4,871 bases of DNA, from IMG/VR virus record IMGVR_UViG_2636415477_000008, positions 1 through 4,871 of that record. The stretch is one strand, 5' to 3'. Below the pieces are notes generated by a model. It was given only the letters and a program-made list of their open reading frames with translations, did not search any database and had not been told where the DNA came from. This document shows positions 1-4,871 of the stretch, in pieces. Source of the DNA: a virus (taxonomy: Duplodnaviria; Heunggongvirae; Uroviricota; Caudoviricetes). How positions within the stretch are numbered: position 1 is the first letter of the stretch; the number at the start of each line of letters is the position of its first letter. A program made the position numbers and the translations under genes.

Positions 1-21
1 TACATCACAGTTTCTGGAACC

Positions 22-55
22 TTGGGTACTACAGTATCAGTCAGGGTGCTATATT
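22..55 (+). promoter_or_regulatory. Candidate promoter with extended -10 (TGcTATATT at 47-55); possible pR'-like late promoter
   Basis: TG at 47-48, one spacer base, then TATATT at 50-55 (5/6 match to TATAAT). No good -35: TTGGGT at 22-27 is 22 bp upstream. A strong intrinsic terminator lies about 125 nt downstream, resembling the lambda pR'-tR' short-transcript layout. Motif match only. Confidence 0.25.
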
Positions 56-181
56 TTCAGATGTGATGAAAGCCTGTCAGCAGGCAGGGCGTATCGGAAA
101 TGACCCAGTAGAGAAAACGTTGACTCAGATACCGGTGCTGAGTTACCGGGAAACCGGCATCACATGACCGCTATCCTTCCA

Positions 182-208
182 GGCCCATCCGCTCCGGTGG
201 GCCTTTTT
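182..208 (+). terminator. Rho-independent terminator (tR'-like)
   Basis: GGCCCA(T)CCG ctc CGGTGGGCC: 9-bp GC-rich stem with one bulged T and a 3-nt loop, followed by TTTTT (204-208). Confidence 0.55.
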
Positions 209-262
209 ACTGCAGAAAACAGGTTCCCCGTTAAATGCTATGTTGCTCACAATTCAGTAAGT

Positions 263-278
263 TGACAGTTGCCTGTCA
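263..278. repeat. Perfect inverted repeat TGACAG-ttgc-CTGTCA
   Basis: 6-bp arms with 4-bp spacer; a TTGACA hexamer (262-267) overlaps the left arm. Operator-like dyad or RNA hairpin. Confidence 0.3.
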
Positions 279-454
279 GACTGGGCATTTGTTAAAAAAA
301 TTTCGCATGGTGAATCCCCCTGAGCGGAGGGGCGACTGGTGACGGTATAATCTCTGATTATCAAAACGAGAATGACGCGGGTTTAGTGGCACCGGGCTGA
401 ACTCACCGGGAGGCACCCGGCACCATGTTCATGGTGATACAGAAATGCGGCTTC

Positions 455-479
455 AGCCCCTCTCCGGAGGGGCTTTCTT
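455..479 (+). terminator. Rho-independent terminator
   Basis: AGCCCCTC tccg GAGGGGCT: 8-bp stem, 4-nt loop, followed by the T-rich run TTTCTT. Confidence 0.55.
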
Positions 480-485
480 ATGGAC

Positions 486-513
486 AAAAAAGCCCGCGCT
501 GGGAGACGCGGGC
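486..513 (-). terminator. Rho-independent terminator oriented for the minus strand
   Basis: GCCCGCG ctgggaga CGCGGGC (492-513): 7-bp stem preceded on the + strand by AAAAAA (486-491), so the minus-strand transcript has hairpin then U6. It sits back-to-back with the + terminator at 455-479. Confidence 0.4.
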
Positions 514-581
514 GGCAAGGAATAAACAATAAAACGTGAAGTAATATTTCAGCTGGCGAATAATACCCCATAGTAATCACT

Positions 582-604
582 CTGCGCAACTGCGCGGCCT
601 TTTT
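582..604 (+). terminator. Rho-independent terminator
   Basis: CTGCGC aact GCGCGG: 6-bp stem including one G-U pair, 4-nt loop, then CC and TTTTT (600-604). Confidence 0.45.
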
Positions 605-706
605 CGTATTGCGGGCTGTAGTCTCCCTTCTGCCATTGTCCTGTAACTTCCGGACTTCAGCTCGCTCCTTATCTGACTCACAACATTATCCCGACCGGGA
701 GGATTC

Positions 707-2695
707 ATGACATTTAAACACTACGATGTGGTCAGGGCGGCGTCGCCGTCAGACCTTGCGGAGCGACTGACACAAAAACTGAAGGAGGGGTGGCAGCCAT
801 TTGGCAGCCCTGTCGCCATCACGCCTTATACCCTGATGCAGGCCATTGCGGCGGAAGGTGATGTCACCACACCTGTGGTGGTGAAGCCGTCGGATGGAGA
901 AGGCACAGTTATCAGCACCACCAGCGAACCGGAGTATTACTTTGTTGTTGTTCTGGCGGGGCAGTCAAACTCAATGTCTTTTGGTGAAGGGCTGCCGCTG
1001 CCGGAGACATATGACCGTCCGGACCCGCGTATTAAACAGCTGGCGCGTCGCAGTACGGTGACGCCGGGTGGTGTCGCCTGTAAATATAACGACATCATTC
1101 CGGCAGACCACTGTCTGCATGATGTGCAGGATATGAGTAACCTGAATCATCCTGAAGCGGACTTGTCAAAGGGACAGTACGGTTGTGTGGGGCATGCTCT
1201 GCATGTTGCCAAAAAGCTGCTGCCGTTTATGCCTGCGAATGCGGGTATCCTTCTTGTTCCATGTGGCCGTGGCGATTCGGGATTTACTGCGGGGGCCGAG
1301 GGGGCGTTTAACGAAGCGTCGGGAGCGACCGCAGGCTCGTCCCTGTGGGGGGCGGATAAACCGCTGTATCATGACCTGGTCAGCAGAACCCGTGCGGCCC
1401 TGAAGAAAAATCCGAAGAACGTGCTGTTATCAGTGATCTGGATGCAGGGAGAAAAAGATGTCAGTTCGGGGAGACATGCAGAACACAATGCGCTTTTCCT
1501 TGCCATGGTAAATCAGTTCCGTACGGAACTGGCAGATGTGGCAGAGCAGTGTACTGGCGGGACAACGGCCAGCGTCCCGTGGATTTGCGGTGATACCACG
1601 TACTACTGGAAGGAAAGGTATGCAGCGCCGTATGAGGCGGTTTACGGTGGGTATAAAGGCAAAGCTGCGCAGAATATTCACTTTGTGCCGTTGATGACGG
1701 ATGAGCATGGTGTGAATGTGCCGACAAACGAGCCGTCAGAAGATCCGGACATTATCCCGGCGGGATACTATGGCGCTGCGTCACGCACTGCCAGTAACTG
1801 GACGTCAGCCGATCGTAAAACGCACTTCAGTTCATGGGCGCGAAGAGGCCTTGTTTCAGACCGCCTGGCAGGTGCCATTTTGCAGTACGCCGGGCGGACA
1901 TTATCGTTCCTTACCGGGCAGAGCGCACCGCAGTCGGGTGGTACAACTCCCGGTGATGATGTCAGTCCGGGGGTACCGGGTGTTGAGAAACCGCAGGATG
2001 GCGGTGTTGCTGGTACTGGTCATGATGAGGCCGTGAGCAGTACCAGGACGGTGGCTGAATATGATGCGAACAGTGGAAATGGTGTATGGACAGAGCAGCA
2101 GTGGGGGGCTGCCGGTGGCAAAGGCACTGTGACTGATGACGGTGGACGGAAAGCGCTGCGACTGGAAAAACAGCCCGGTAAACTGACGTCCTGGAAAATG
2201 TTCTGTACTGTTGCAGTGGAGGAGGCAAAAAATCTTCTCAGCAAGGGGGGTGAAATTGCCGTACGGTTCAAAATTCCGGATGGAAGCGAACTGGTGAACG
2301 GACAGTTTGTCTTTGGTCTCTACTGGCCGGTGTCGCAGTGGGCGTCAGGCGCGGCAGCAAACAGTATGCTGGCATCATTCTTCCTTCAGACGGATGCATC
2401 AAATCTGAATCTTATGCACCACAAGGGCACGTCGAATGCACAACTGGGTACATTTGGTGCGTTTGACCATAACTGGCATACGGTTGTTTTCCGCTTTGCG
2501 GGAAATAACAGCGAAAGAGTCGTTCCGGTGATTGATGGTACAGAGCAGACGGCGTTTGACCTTGTGATGTGGACAAATGATGGCTTTACAGCAGATACGC
2601 TGACGCTGACAGATATCACGGGGGCAAAAGCGACGTATCCGGTACTGCTTGATACGGTCACAGTCAAAGTTAACGAAAACCGGGAATCAGCATAA
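707..2695 (+). CDS. nanS: Prophage NanS-p-like sialate O-acetylesterase (DUF1737 N-terminus + SGNH/SASA esterase + C-terminal probable carbohydrate-binding domain)
   Basis: 662-codon ORF. ATG at 707 with GGGAGG (697-702) 4 nt upstream; stop TAA at 2693-2695. The N-terminus MTFKHYDVVRAASPSDLAERL...GWQPFGSPVAITPYTLMQA matches the DUF1737 leader of prophage NanS-p proteins as I recall them. GQSN at aa 85-88 (nt 959-970) is the SGNH block-I motif with the putative nucleophile Ser87; WMQGE at aa 245-249 (nt 1439-1453) is a typical SASA-family motif. The C-terminal ~250 aa are Gly/Thr-rich. Position between the late leader and the lysis cassette matches where nanS-p (and stx in Stx phages) sits. 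Confidence 0.85.
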   Translation: MTFKHYDVVRAASPSDLAERLTQKLKEGWQPFGSPVAITPYTLMQAIAAEGDVTTPVVVKPSDGEGTVISTTSEPEYYFVVVLAGQSNSMSFGEGLPLPETYDRPDPRIKQLARRSTVTPGGVACKYNDIIPADHCLHDVQDMSNLNHPEADLSKGQYGCVGHALHVAKKLLPFMPANAGILLVPCGRGDSGFTAGAEGAFNEASGATAGSSLWGADKPLYHDLVSRTRAALKKNPKNVLLSVIWMQGEKDVSSGRHAEHNALFLAMVNQFRTELADVAEQCTGGTTASVPWICGDTTYYWKERYAAPYEAVYGGYKGKAAQNIHFVPLMTDEHGVNVPTNEPSEDPDIIPAGYYGAASRTASNWTSADRKTHFSSWARRGLVSDRLAGAILQYAGRTLSFLTGQSAPQSGGTTPGDDVSPGVPGVEKPQDGGVAGTGHDEAVSSTRTVAEYDANSGNGVWTEQQWGAAGGKGTVTDDGGRKALRLEKQPGKLTSWKMFCTVAVEEAKNLLSKGGEIAVRFKIPDGSELVNGQFVFGLYWPVSQWASGAAANSMLASFFLQTDASNLNLMHHKGTSNAQLGTFGAFDHNWHTVVFRFAGNNSERVVPVIDGTEQTAFDLVMWTNDGFTADTLTLTDITGAKATYPVLLDTVTVKVNENRESA

Positions 2696-2700
2696 CCGGC

Positions 2701-2737
2701 AAAAAAAACCGCCAGCGGCAGAAACGGAAGCTGGCGG
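2701..2737. terminator. Stem-loop immediately 3' of the esterase gene; A8 tract upstream, no T tract downstream
   Basis: A8 (2701-2708), then CCGCCAGC (2709-2716), a 13-nt loop, and GCTGGCGG (2730-2737). The geometry is that of an intrinsic terminator for the minus strand, or a stabilising or partially terminating hairpin for the + strand late transcript. Confidence 0.35.
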
Positions 2738-2834
2738 AGGTAATCCCAATGGAGAATGTAAAGAAAAGATGCTTTCGTATATCGGTTTTTTAAATGAAAA
2801 CAGTTCTCATTGTCAACCATAACGGTAAGAAACT

Positions 2835-3029
2835 ATGACATTTGTTCATCAGGTGATGCTGTACTTCTGTACGGCAGTCTGTGTGCTGTATCTTCTTTCG
2901 GGTGGGTACAGGGCAGTGCGCGATTTCTGGCGCAGGCAGATTGATAAAAGGGCCGCAGAGAAAATCAGCGCCAGTCAGTCAGCCGGAGCAAAAACAGAAG
3001 CCCCACTCATTCCGGAACAACCTTCTTAA
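2835..3029 (+). CDS. Small hypothetical single-pass membrane protein (64 aa)
   Basis: ATG at 2835, stop TAA at 3027-3029. Hydrophobic N-terminal segment VMLYFCTAVCVLYLLSGGY followed by a basic stretch RAVRDFWRRQIDKR (positive-inside). Weak SD (GGTAAG). Function unknown. Confidence 0.4.
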   Translation: MTFVHQVMLYFCTAVCVLYLLSGGYRAVRDFWRRQIDKRAAEKISASQSAGAKTEAPLIPEQPS

Positions 3030-3054
3030 TAACCCCTTTCAACGAGAAAATCCT

Positions 3055-3345
3055 ATGTCAGAAATAAAATCGCTGGTCACTGCTGAGGCAGTGAAGGAAG
3101 TCCTGCGCTCTGAAGAAGTCCGGAGCGCACTGAAACAGCAACTTCGGCAGAACCTTGAGGCGCGTCTTGATGCAGAAGTGGATGCCATTCTGGATGAATT
3201 GCTTGGTGCACAGCCGGAACCATCCCCGGAACTGCTTCCGGAACCACAGGCGGAAGATGTCACCACGGAAAATGGTGATATTCAGCCGGAGCCACCGGTG
3301 ACGGATATGACAGACACACAGCCAGAATCGGGCACAATGCTGTAA
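3055..3345 (+). CDS. Hypothetical acidic protein (96 aa): helical N-terminus, Pro/Glu-rich C-terminus
   Basis: ATG at 3055 (MSEIKSLV...), chosen over the GTG at 2881 that the ORF track uses, because that extension overlaps the 64-aa ORF and has no RBS. Weak SD-like GAGAAA. The C-terminus has PEPSPELLPEPQAE-type repeats. Function unknown. Confidence 0.45.
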   Translation: MSEIKSLVTAEAVKEVLRSEEVRSALKQQLRQNLEARLDAEVDAILDELLGAQPEPSPELLPEPQAEDVTTENGDIQPEPPVTDMTDTQPESGTML

Positions 3346-3420
3346 CGGTGAGTCAGGGTCATCAGTAAAGAGCTGGTGGCCCTTTTGTTGTTGTGAGCTT
3401 CCGAGTACGGGAGACGGGGT

Positions 3421-3636
3421 ATGTACCAGATGGAAAAAATCACAACAGGTGTGTCATACACCACGTCAGCGGTGGGAACGGGCTACTGGTTCCTGCAGTT
3501 GCTGGACAGGGTTTCCCCGTCTCAGTGGGCGGCAATAGGCGTGCTGGGGAGTCTGCTGTTTGGGCTGCTGACATATCTGACTAACCTGTATTTCAAAATC
3601 AGAGAGGACCGTCGTAAGGCAGCGCGGGGAGAGTAA
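3421..3636 (+). CDS. S: Class II holin (S21-like pinholin) with dual-start motif
   Basis: 71 codons. GGGAG (3409-3413) 7 nt upstream of ATG 3421. In-frame Met at codons 1 and 4 (MYQMEK). Two TM segments: a weakly hydrophobic Gly/Ser/Thr-containing TMD1 ([18 protein letters not shown]) and TMD2 ([18 protein letters not shown]); basic C-tail [13 protein letters not shown]. Close resemblance to phage 21 S21 as I recall its sequence. Confidence 0.85.
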
Positions 3637-3640
3637 GGCG

Positions 3641-4276
3641 ATGAATAAACAATACAAACTGGTTGTTAAAGGGATAAATAATTACCCGGATAAGATTACT
3701 GTTACTGTGGCACTGGAAATTGGTGGGTATCCGTCACTGTTGTTGCCAAATGTGGCGATTAGTCTTGACCGTACTGAAGGTGCCACGCTGGAATTTTACG
3801 AAGCTGAGGCGAAAAAACAGGCGAAGCAGTTTTTCATGGATATTGCTGCCGCTTTATGTGAAGGGGATGAGCAGTCGCCGGAAAAGCGCCCCATAATTTT
3901 AGAGGCGCAGGATGTGTTGATAACCTACAGAGGAAAACTACCGGGAATAATTACTGGTTCTCTGAAGACGCCACCGACGGCATTGCGGTCAGAAAACGAT
4001 GATATTGAATCACGCATTGAAAAACTGGAGTGCTATATCGCTGAATTGAAAAAAAGCATCCCAACAAAAAATGAGGTGCTTGCAGCAGATGAAATGAAAG
4101 AAACTATTCTTGATCGCGCGGCGCATCTAAGCTGCGCTTCACGGTTGAAAGAGCATCTTCAGCGGCCTGAAGAAAAACGCCGCGATGAGCAGTTCGCGGC
4201 GTTTTACGATTATTGCATTGAAGTTACTCGCAGGAATTTTGTGAAGGCTTTTGAGGAGAGTAAATCTCTTCAGTAA
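3641..4276 (+). CDS. Hypothetical soluble protein (211 aa) inserted between holin and endolysin; function unknown
   Basis: ATG at 3641, only 4 nt after the holin stop (TAA 3634-3636), with a purine-rich SD GGGGAGAG (3626-3633). Stop TAA at 4274-4276. No TM segment; beta-rich N-terminal half and charged helical C-terminal half (NDDIESRIEKLECYIAELKK...). Visibly more A/T-rich than the flanking genes. I do not recognise the family. Confidence 0.65.
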   Translation: MNKQYKLVVKGINNYPDKITVTVALEIGGYPSLLLPNVAISLDRTEGATLEFYEAEAKKQAKQFFMDIAAALCEGDEQSPEKRPIILEAQDVLITYRGKLPGIITGSLKTPPTALRSENDDIESRIEKLECYIAELKKSIPTKNEVLAADEMKETILDRAAHLSCASRLKEHLQRPEEKRRDEQFAAFYDYCIEVTRRNFVKAFEESKSLQ

Positions 4277-4484
4277 GCTTAATGGCGGACGCTGCAATTA
4301 ATTCAGGAAGGTCCGCAAGGTCATCTGTCAGTGGGAATGATGAAAAATCGGCGGCAGTTCTGTTAAGAATTGCTTTAACTAATTCCTTTTCCTCATCCGG
4401 CAACACGTTGATTAGAGCTACGACTGCTTGCCTGAGTGCGATTAAATCAGCAAAAGTTTGTTTTGGTAGATTTGGATAATCCAT
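4224..4484 (-). CDS. Hypothetical small acidic protein (86 aa), convergent with and 3'-overlapping the 211-aa ORF
   Basis: Minus-strand ATG at 4484-4482 preceded by GAGGTG about 4 nt upstream. Product starts MDYPNLPKQTFADLIALRQAVVALINVLPDEEKE...; stop TAA is the complement of 4224-4226. An alternative upstream ATG (4556-4554) lacks an SD. The protein is more plausible than the antisense + ORF 4282-4479, which is Ser/Ala-rich. Overlaps the 3' end of the 211-aa gene by 53 bp. Confidence 0.4.
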   Translation of the reverse strand: MDYPNLPKQTFADLIALRQAVVALINVLPDEEKELVKAILNRTAADFSSFPLTDDLADLPELIAASAIKLTEEIYSPQKPSQNSCE

Positions 4485-4514
4485 AGTCACCTCTGTGTTT
4501 ATCAGATTGACATA

Positions 4515-4538
4515 CCCTGGCCAGTGCCCACCACTGGC
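4515..4538. repeat. Interlaced dyad symmetries in the intergenic region between the minus-strand ORF start and the endolysin
   Basis: GCCAGTG-cccac-CACTGGC (4520-4538; 7-bp arms, 5-bp spacer), overlapping the 8-bp palindrome CTGGCCAG (4517-4524). Operator-like; no T tract follows, so not a terminator. Confidence 0.3.
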
Positions 4539-4595
4539 GGGGTGAAGGCTTAACATATCCAGGGATTCGGAACCGATAAATCCTGATAAATATCC

Positions 4596-4871
4596 ATGAA
4601 CGCAAAAATCAAATACGGCCTGTCGGCTGCCGTTCTGGCGCTGATTGCCGCAGGGGCTTCTGCGCCTGAAATTCTCGACCAGTTTCTGGATGAAAAGGAA
4701 GGTAACCACACCACGGCATACCGTGATGGTGCAGGTATCTGGACCATCTGCCGTGGTGCCACCCGGGTGGATGGTAAGCCTGTCGTCCCCGGCATGAAGT
4801 TGTCGAAGGAAAAATGCGACCAGGTTAACGCCATTGAGCGTGATAAAGCGCTGGCGTGGGTGGAGAAAAAC
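4596..4871 (+). CDS. R: SAR endolysin (T4/P21-type lysozyme), 5' partial, runs off the window
   Basis: ATG at 4596, with an in-frame TAA 9 nt upstream, so this is the first possible start; 92 codons are present. N-terminal signal-anchor-release-type segment YGLSAAVLALIAAGASAP (Gly/Ala-rich, weakly hydrophobic). Catalytic triad spacing E35-x8-D44-x5-T50 in EGNHTTAYRDGAGIWT, as in P21 R. No recognisable SD upstream. Confidence 0.85.
   Translation, partial: MNAKIKYGLSAAVLALIAAGASAPEILDQFLDEKEGNHTTAYRDGAGIWTICRGATRVDGKPVVPGMKLSKEKCDQVNAIERDKALAWVEKN

Follow-up and report, generated by a model that had tools for sequence, protein, structure and literature searches.

What does the DNA do that separates the holin gene from the endolysin gene in a phage lysis cassette, and is it one system, two genes or leftover sequence? 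We addressed this question for a stretch of 4,871 nucleotides (positions 1 to 4,871 of the IMG/VR virus record IMGVR_UViG_2636415477_000008; hereafter the window), which is a late-region stretch of a lambdoid prophage. Its holin-to-lysozyme gap (3637-4595, 959 bp, 44.7% GC) has an S21-type pinholin on one side and a signal-arrest-release (SAR) endolysin on the other, and contains an open reading frame (ORF) of 211 aa on the plus strand and one of 86 aa, termed orf86, on the minus strand. By its domain content, the 211-aa ORF is a protein of the YdfR (DUF1327) family, named after E. coli K-12 b1555. That this main gene is annotated and widespread in E. coli, K-12 included, is already known. The structure of the locus is new, and comprises a modular long YdfR, a conserved convergent partner, short forms derived by deletion, and a slot for variable cargo. 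The interval is no novel insert but the long form of the ydfR accessory cassette of S21-pinholin/RrrQ-type SAR-endolysin modules. For the overall explanation, with the mechanism proposed below included, we see a little less than an even chance.

A modular YdfR protein behind the holin

The features of the interval are listed below, with positions counted from the first nucleotide of the window. AlphaFold2 (AF2) models are described by their predicted local distance difference test (pLDDT) scores.

3641-4276, plus strand: ydfR, long 211-aa form, with its ATG 4 nt past the holin stop; PF07041 (DUF1327)
3641-3865, plus strand: DUF1327 core, aa 1-75, predicted beta-beta-beta-alpha fold (AF2 pLDDT 64-84)
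3866-3976, plus strand: optional linker, aa 76-112, predicted disordered (pLDDT 26-41)
3977-4276, plus strand: C-terminal coiled-coil module, aa 113-211, with the conserved tail EEKRRDEQFAAFYDYCIEVTRRNFVKAFEESKSLQ and predicted helices at 122-137, 143-173 and 183-208
4224-4276, both strands: convergent 3' overlap of ydfR and orf86 (53 nt), encoding the last 17 codons of orf86, its poorly ordered end
4484-4224, minus strand: orf86, 86 aa, acidic (isoelectric point 4.3), convergent with ydfR; phrog_2572 over its full length (E-value 4e-50)
4493-4487, minus strand: strong Shine-Dalgarno sequence of orf86, GAGGTGA, read from the sequence
4513-4545: hairpin on the perfect 19-bp palindrome GCCAGTGCCCACCACTGGC (4520-4538), RNA fold -19.5 kcal/mol
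4552-4580, minus strand: weak promoter-like element, TTTATC (4580-4575), 17 nt, TATGTT (4557-4552), with a 7/12 consensus match, below the scan threshold
3971-3981: left copy of an imperfect direct repeat, CCACCGACGGC, flanking a 557-bp segment
4528-4538: right copy of the repeat, CCACCACTGGC, inside the palindrome

The 211-aa protein matched PF07041 over residues 1-112 with 141.1 bits (cut-off 25, E-value 1e-41), and it also matched phrog_2091, phrog_1085 and phrog_406. The position of the gene is that of ydfR as well, between a class II holin and a lysozyme in the window, in the K-12 prophage Qin and in 81 related loci. In near-identical copies (99.9%), the Prokaryotic Genome Annotation Pipeline (PGAP) gives the order class II holin, YdfR family protein, hypothetical protein, lysozyme, and it has applied the YdfR label in thousands of genomes. 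The phage PhiR5_1, accession PV340545, carries the same cassette at 98.7% identity with the same 211-aa ORF. A first-pass annotation of the window had recognised neither gene; this is superseded for the 211-aa ORF and still stands for the 86-aa gene, which has no known family beyond phrog_2572.

PGAP flags the intact ydfR ORF of the near-identical copies as a pseudogene ('missing C-terminus'), likely because its reference proteins are the 296-333-aa forms. In the loci L001 (6242-6583) and L008 (2160-2495), an intact long ydfR was called a pseudogene in this way, with only the first ~112-114 codons annotated.

The YdfR homologues (n=200, 103-333 aa) form a mosaic with alternative C-termini, and the order of their parts is the DUF1327 core, the optional linker, the coiled coil (LRSEKDDIESRIEKLE...), an optional 28-aa block, the motif EKKRRDEQFAAFYDYC and a variable ending. 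The core of the 211-aa protein is 43% identical to residues 1-74 of K-12 YdfR and, by this alignment, appears to correspond to the RNase E-binding part of the K-12 protein. The ratio of nonsynonymous to synonymous differences (pN/pS) in the ydfR N-domain was ~0.45 at a pS (synonymous differences per site) of ~0.7. The linker is missing or substituted in the 169-aa, 195-aa and K-12 forms, and the coiled-coil module is homologous both to a stand-alone 73-aa gene (locus L021) and to the ydfR tail of locus L024. Compared with the commoner 183-aa form, the window has an additional 26-codon segment (4095-4172, 78 nt) and an additional 6 nt (two codons) near 4067-4072, 28 aa in total. The segment at 4095-4172, specific for the 211-aa form, contains the hairpin TCTTCAGCGGCCTGAAGA; a hairpin at 4173-4156 was considered as the terminator of orf86 and rejected, since the segment is absent from most alleles. 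The protein is acidic and has no transmembrane segment. Altogether, the 211-aa protein is a modular YdfR composed of a DUF1327 domain, a disordered linker and a coiled-coil C-terminal module. Scans of both interval proteins and of the long YdfR forms against Pfam, NCBIfam and PADLOC found only DUF1327, and neither PDB sequence-profile searches nor fold searches with the interval proteins gave an informative match.

In the Stx2a phage VT2phi_272, the lysozyme ATG lies exactly 4 nt past the holin stop, at the position where ydfR begins in the window. The interval is therefore extra DNA relative to such cassettes, and the alignment shows it as an A/T-rich indel, as the first-pass annotation had expected of cassettes with adjacent holin (S) and endolysin (R) genes. 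In effect, ydfR occupies the holin-coupled initiation site, which belongs to the endolysin in cassettes with neighbouring S and R genes. The 20 nt before the SAR endolysin start (4576-4595, ATAAATCCTGATAAATATCC) contain no Shine-Dalgarno sequence. Since ydfR starts in the translational slot of the endolysin of ydfR-less phages, it very likely rides the late lysis transcript, which makes the late co-expression with the lysis genes proposed at first pass very likely too.

We counted the three components of the cassette in 5,426 complete E. coli genomes (blastn) and in phage records (tblastn).

Holin: 13,418 places, 4,296/5,426 genomes, 436 phage records
ydfR N-domain: 6,410 places, 3,018/5,426 genomes, 101 phage records
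orf86 cassette: 335 places, 314/5,426 genomes, 8 phage records

Judged by the numbers of places, ydfR accompanies about half of the genomic cassettes and is missing from the rest. The gene orf86 occurs with ~5% of ydfR copies and in ~2.5% of cassettes, the DUF1327 part being without it in ~95%. Neither gene is thus a conserved core accessory of lysis, in keeping with the first-pass annotation. Among the 81 IMG/VR and GTDB loci with orf86, most encode the 183-aa YdfR form (55 loci) and few the 211-aa form (3 loci). A scan of GTDB species representatives found orf86 in E. coli only, and the ydfR family is present in many Stx1a and Stx2c phages.

The position of ydfR raises the idea that YdfR is a cytoplasmic lysis-timing factor in the manner of T4 RIII or P1 LydB. 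Produced alongside the pinholin, this acidic protein would bind the basic C-terminal tail (13 residues) of the pinholin or affect the release of the SAR endolysin, with orf86 tuning it. The gene is flanked by S and R and follows S at the 4-nt distance by which R is otherwise coupled to S, its family is found in lysis cassettes only (a stand-alone pair after Rz included), and the S:R ratio is probably altered because R has no Shine-Dalgarno sequence. In addition, an envelope-integrity screen picked up a K-12 ydfR mutant, according to the passage of PMC13232886 that cites it; by our own inference, that phenotype could be a polar effect on rrrQ. YdfR has, however, neither a transmembrane segment nor similarity to any known antiholin or lysis regulator, and about half of the cassettes work without ydfR, including those of phages with 98-100% identical holins. 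We regard a role in lysis timing as unlikely.

orf86 and the convergent pair

The ATG start of orf86 lies inside a longer, GTG-started ORF. As both ORFs of the interval belong to recurrent families (PF07041, and phrog_2572 at full length), they are more than chance. Diverged homologues of orf86, obtained in a whole-library HMMER scan, have 93 aa (49-58% identity) or 89 aa (41-42%) and keep its helix pattern; AF2 predicted a three-helix bundle (pLDDT 68.6) with a disordered tail, scoring below 50 at residues 78-86. No internal stop was present in 92 loci, so that the ORF is intact in 92/92. Across 13 gapless alleles, there were 15, 9 and 8 variable sites at codon positions 3, 1 and 2, respectively, and the synonymous:non-synonymous variant codons were 10:23 in frame versus 4:26 and 5:26 out of frame, while indels stayed in frame. 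Together with the full-length phrog_2572 match, the strong Shine-Dalgarno sequence and the diverged homologues, these patterns of variation are evidence that orf86 is a gene.

Its product has no signal peptide, lipobox or membrane segment, and no Pfam, NCBIfam, PADLOC, PDB or fold match was found for it. Several candidate relationships were rejected. The DUF1823 (PF08853) label that orf86 bears in PhiR phage records corresponds to 15.3 bits (cut-off 25) over 30 residues only; matches to the TPR-CHAT proteins P0147 and P0148 were discarded as repeat or composition artefacts; and P0149, considered as a homologue, looks like an off-frame product.

The arrangement of orf86 with the ydfR tail is conserved. 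All 81 IMG/VR and GTDB loci have orf86 in the same place, with the ydfR tail on one side and the lysozyme on the other. Locus L024 has a K-12-type ydfR in the long form, followed by a convergent orf89 and the SAR lysozyme. In loci L021-L023, an orf93 is convergent with the stand-alone 73-aa coiled-coil gene, which shares LKGLERQCIVIKAQL...AEQKRRDENEAALY...VLVRNFQKLKSTQQG with the YdfR module, and this pair is located after an Rz-like gene (DUF2514) and not between S and R. The overlap between tail and partner is conserved in L021 and L024, where it measures 59 nt. Thus, the pair architecture persists in homologues at 41-58% identity and at two genomic positions. The contexts in L021 and L024 indicate that what is conserved is less than the whole interval, namely the unit made up of the coiled-coil module and orf86 (~3982-4545). 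As a separate observation, an additional A within an A-run splits ydfR of L024, a metagenomic contig, in two (~1032-1154 and 602-952, minus strand), by a frameshift or through an error of sequencing.

In comparisons of the window with Qin-like loci, pS was 0.04-0.10 across 3866-4484, whereas the holin, the ydfR N-domain and the lysozyme had values of 0.5-0.7, so this segment was recently exchanged between Qin-like and Stx-like prophages.

Upstream of orf86, the palindrome is kept in Qin-like alleles with a G-U change, and the hairpin that it forms is likely the 5' untranslated region of orf86. Across 20 distinct alleles, the spacer of the promoter-like element changes but neither of its hexamers, TTTATC and TATGTT, does. 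In L021, TTTATC is likewise present, 17 nt away from a -10-like hexamer that reads TATTGT, and the spacer has another sequence. Read on the opposite strand, the bases of the element also precede the endolysin. As expression signals of orf86, the hexamers and the hairpin are suggestive only.

These signals bear on an alternative in which the functional element would be the antisense transcription unit and not the orf86 protein: leftward transcription together with the hairpin would block or degrade read-through and thereby curb leaky SAR endolysin in lysogens. SAR endolysins are able to lyse cells without a holin, the unit is directly upstream of R, it has a conserved hairpin and promoter-like hexamers, and protein-level selection on orf86 is weak. 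Against this, length, frame and helix pattern are preserved in homologues that are 41-58% identical, variation in orf86 is enriched at third positions with in-frame indels, and most cassettes have no such unit. We consider an antisense insulator highly improbable.

Another conceivable use of the conserved unit is a two-component switch, undescribed so far, that moves between lysis cassettes. In such a switch, orf86 would be made in the lysogen and its coiled-coil partner from the late transcript only, with convergent transcription and protein antagonism combined. A lysogen-phase activity (exclusion, anti-defence, or a guard against premature action of the SAR endolysin or RNase E) would thereby be tied to the lysis decision. 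We consider a switch of this kind quite unlikely.

Short forms, the cargo slot and the surroundings

A 114-aa short form of YdfR, found in Stx1a, Stx2c and some Stx2a phages, lacks the 557-bp segment that the imperfect direct repeat flanks in the window, and its junction CCACCGCTGGC is a hybrid of both repeat copies. The K-12 ydfR is ~93% identical to the L024 gene up to ...CGTCCTCATC and then jumps to ATAAATATC just before the lysozyme start; this junction fits a deletion of ~575 bp between TCCTCAT and TCCTGAT, and K-12 ydfR now overlaps rrrQ. Compared with L024, the namesake YdfR of Qin (L004, 6055-6366, minus strand) looks like a remnant of a long form with a convergent orf86-like gene. At least two short forms, that of K-12 included, thus look like deletion derivatives of the pair. 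That precisely the pair was lost twice, independently, speaks for the long form as the ancestral one and against an insertion, a direction that rests on two junctions. The first-pass description of a two-gene insert is therefore correct in that the genes are linked by a conserved 3' overlap, but it does not fit the DUF1327 part, ~95% of whose copies occur without orf86, nor the two short forms that look like deletions.

The sequence that follows the coiled coil is variable. The ending of the YdfR protein in the window, IEVTRRNFVKAFEESKSLQ, is always accompanied by orf86. The 296-333-aa forms (phrog_1085) have a further domain of ~120 aa in frame and no antisense gene (L016). A third arrangement was found in L014, annotated with a 305-aa protein, which departs from the window at 4217 and returns to homology at 4520. 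In the region between, L014 has an uncalled antisense ORF of 210 aa with a Shine-Dalgarno sequence (3170-3799, minus strand). This ORF has homologues of equal length (53-65% identical) in Salmonella and metagenomes, at moron-type sites by sodC or lambdoid tail genes, and is therefore a real, though orphan, gene. A 'third C-terminal domain' of the 305-aa YdfR proteins was accordingly rejected as a probable read-through over the antisense gene. As judged by these comparisons, variable cargo occupies a slot at the 3' end of ydfR that extends from ~4217 up to the palindrome (4520-4538), with the hairpin at 4513-4545 as its right edge. In the prophage with the 333-aa YdfR form, a Tad2-like gene (PF11195, anti-Thoeris family; L016, 4592-5113) directly follows Rz, which suggests that the edges of lysis cassettes collect counter-defence cargo.

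The deviant base composition and the presence/absence polymorphism of orf86 are those of a moron, although only the weak promoter-like element was seen as a signal of its own, and the first-pass annotation had named exclusion, defence and toxin/antitoxin functions next to lysis timing. None of these roles received support in the Pfam, NCBIfam, PADLOC, PDB sequence or fold searches. In PADLOC-DB 2.0, the 211-aa protein had a chance-level match to Cmr5 (E-value 0.018) and orf86 had none, so that no defence system was recognised. If the coiled-coil gene and orf86 were a toxin/antitoxin-like or a defence/exclusion pair, they would help the lysogen against superinfecting phages. The low GC content, the presence/absence polymorphism and the mobility of the pair as a unit agree with this; so do the orientation of orf86 opposite to the late operon, as in lambda bor, and the other antisense orphan in the slot of L014, whose homologues occupy other moron sites near tail genes. 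However, no component has a PADLOC, Pfam or NCBIfam match and no toxin or antitoxin domain is recognisable; the genes converge, with their 3' ends overlapping, whereas type II toxin-antitoxin pairs typically form co-directional operons; and the presumed 'toxin' is part of a fusion with a late lysis-cassette gene, so that its production would be confined to a doomed cell. We find such a pair very improbable.

The same variability could mean that the interval is largely selfish or decaying mosaic DNA without current function, kept by linkage to the lysis genes. Independent deletions, the frameshifted ydfR of L024, the many length variants and the high pN/pS outside the ydfR N-domain would all be expected of such DNA. 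Yet the orf86 reading frame is intact in all loci compared, the pair architecture is kept across deep divergence and in both genomic contexts, and the ydfR N-domain has the pN/pS given above at a pS of ~0.7. We consider passenger DNA a very unlikely explanation of the interval.

The genes that surround the interval are the following.

707-2695, plus strand: NanS-p-like esterase, 662 aa (DUF1737 + SASA + DUF6645)
2835-3029 and 3055-3345: two small DUF genes
3421-3636, plus strand: S21-type (class II) pinholin, 71 aa, dual starts Met1/Met4; PF04971 (E-value 9e-33), phrog_9876/phrog_20 'holin'
4596-4871, plus strand: RrrQ-type SAR endolysin, 5' part, cut by the window end; PF00959, phrog_7, with the N-terminal Gly/Ala-rich segment YGLSAAVLALIAAGASAP

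The PF04971 holin, together with a PF00959 lysozyme that has a weakly hydrophobic Gly/Ala-rich N-terminus, identifies an S21-type pinholin/SAR endolysin cassette, and PGAP names the pinholin 'class II holin family protein' in near-identical genomes. For these two genes, pN/pS was 0.06-0.24 (pinholin) and 0.04-0.16 (lysozyme). The GC content is 53.7% in the holin, 55.1% in the endolysin part and 54.4% in the upstream esterase gene, compared with 41.8% in orf86; at third codon positions (GC3), it is 0.43 in the 211-aa ORF and 0.34 in the 86-aa ORF versus 0.55-0.65 in the neighbouring genes. The layout proposed at first pass is accurate in every coordinate: the gap of about 960 bp, the start 4 nt after the holin stop and the opposite-strand ORF were all confirmed, and the interval genes are indeed A/T-richer (44.7% GC versus ~54% for the neighbours).

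Three further observations concern the upstream part of the window. A match to the STnc100 small RNA family (Rfam RF02076; 165.6 bits versus a gathering score of 47) lies at 276-485 (plus strand), upstream of the esterase gene; an Rfam scan of 3300-4871 found no RNA family. In the genome UCPROB-002, which is 99.9% identical, the annotation divides the esterase gene into a pseudogene part and a DUF6645 protein. A terminator-like hairpin (12 pairs) followed by TTTGTTGTTG is located at 3355-3383 (plus strand), between the DUF826 gene and the holin, within the late operon.

Proposed function and related systems

In our literature searches, a functional study of a gene between S and R was found only in PMC13232886, which deals with K-12 YdfR. 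The protein was recovered there in a two-hybrid library screen with RNase G, the RNase E paralogue, as bait, and its two-hybrid signals were stronger with RNase E's N-terminal half than with RNase G (PMC13232886). For the full-length K-12 YdfR fusion, the RNase E 1-597 construct was the only one to give a positive signal, while residues 1-72 suffice for the interaction with the RNase E N-terminal half (PMC13232886). K-12 YdfR also co-purifies with RNase E 1-598 and with DNase-resistant nucleic acid (PMC13232886).

Based on these data, we propose that YdfR would be a cytoplasmic late protein whose DUF1327 domain docks on host RNase E, at the catalytic half, and/or on RNA, and that this adaptor would change RNA processing or stability late in infection. 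The variable C-terminus would set the partner or the specificity. A weak leftward promoter of its own would drive orf86, probably in the lysogen. The orf86 protein would act as partner or antagonist of the coiled-coil module, until opposing late transcription shuts it off upon induction. Lysis itself would require neither ydfR nor orf86. A partnership between orf86 and the coiled coil is proposed from the conserved arrangement of their genes. Taken as a specific mechanism, a late adaptor for RNase E and/or RNA with a variable C-terminus and orf86 as partner or antagonist is possible but doubtful.

Several points weigh against this proposal. Structural matches are weak, and the AF2 model of the 211-aa protein is of low confidence (mean pLDDT 53.9). 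The interaction with RNase E was shown for the K-12 homologue only, which is 43% identical; its overproduction alters few transcripts and growth continues, and the authors allow that the co-purified RNA may have come from a contaminant (PMC13232886). The promoter/terminator scan called neither a promoter nor a terminator for orf86, so that the phase in which it is expressed is conjecture. Selection on orf86 is weakly demonstrable, since its pairwise pN/pS of 0.5-0.8 derives from 12-14 substitutions, too few to separate the frame from control frames. Finally, the repeated loss of the pair and the absence of ydfR from about half of the cassettes indicate that these genes are dispensable.

The only biochemistry of the family was done with K-12 YdfR, which looks like a truncated remnant, and the full-length form should be studied together with the convergent partner gene and the 3' cargo slot. 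Experiments are feasible, as PhiR5_1 is an isolated phage that plates on E. coli C. Should YdfR indeed redirect RNase E at the late stage, this could influence how strongly the late operon is expressed, where Stx phages carry their toxin genes.

Among extra genes of lysis cassettes, some of them with SAR endolysins, are those for T4 RI/RIII, P1 LydB and Mu gp23/gp25 (the latter described in PMC9239132); these have no homology to YdfR and orf86, both of which are without membrane segments. The lambda genes bor and lom, morons transcribed against the late operon, resemble orf86 in their low GC content, their presence in only some relatives, their location at the edge of the lysis cassette and their opposite orientation. 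Unlike these, orf86 encodes a cytoplasmic acidic helical protein without signal peptide or lipobox, overlaps the 3' end of its neighbour, and has no clear promoter or terminator. T7 gp0.7, T4 Srd and phiKZ Dip are phage proteins that bind host RNase E, the property reported for K-12 YdfR in PMC13232886. They show no sequence or fold similarity to YdfR, which belongs to the late lysis cassette of temperate phages. The long YdfR forms of 296-333 aa (phrog_1085) share an identical architecture with the window up to FAAFYDYC, after which they have their extra C-terminal domain of ~120 aa, where the window has its own ending and the antisense gene. The closest characterised counterpart is the essQ-ydfR-rrrQ cassette of K-12 Qin (YdfR, b1555, P76160), which has the same PF07041 domain and the same location, 4 nt past a class II holin and before an RrrQ-type lysozyme; its YdfR of 103 aa is without the linker, the coiled-coil module and the convergent small gene that characterise the window.

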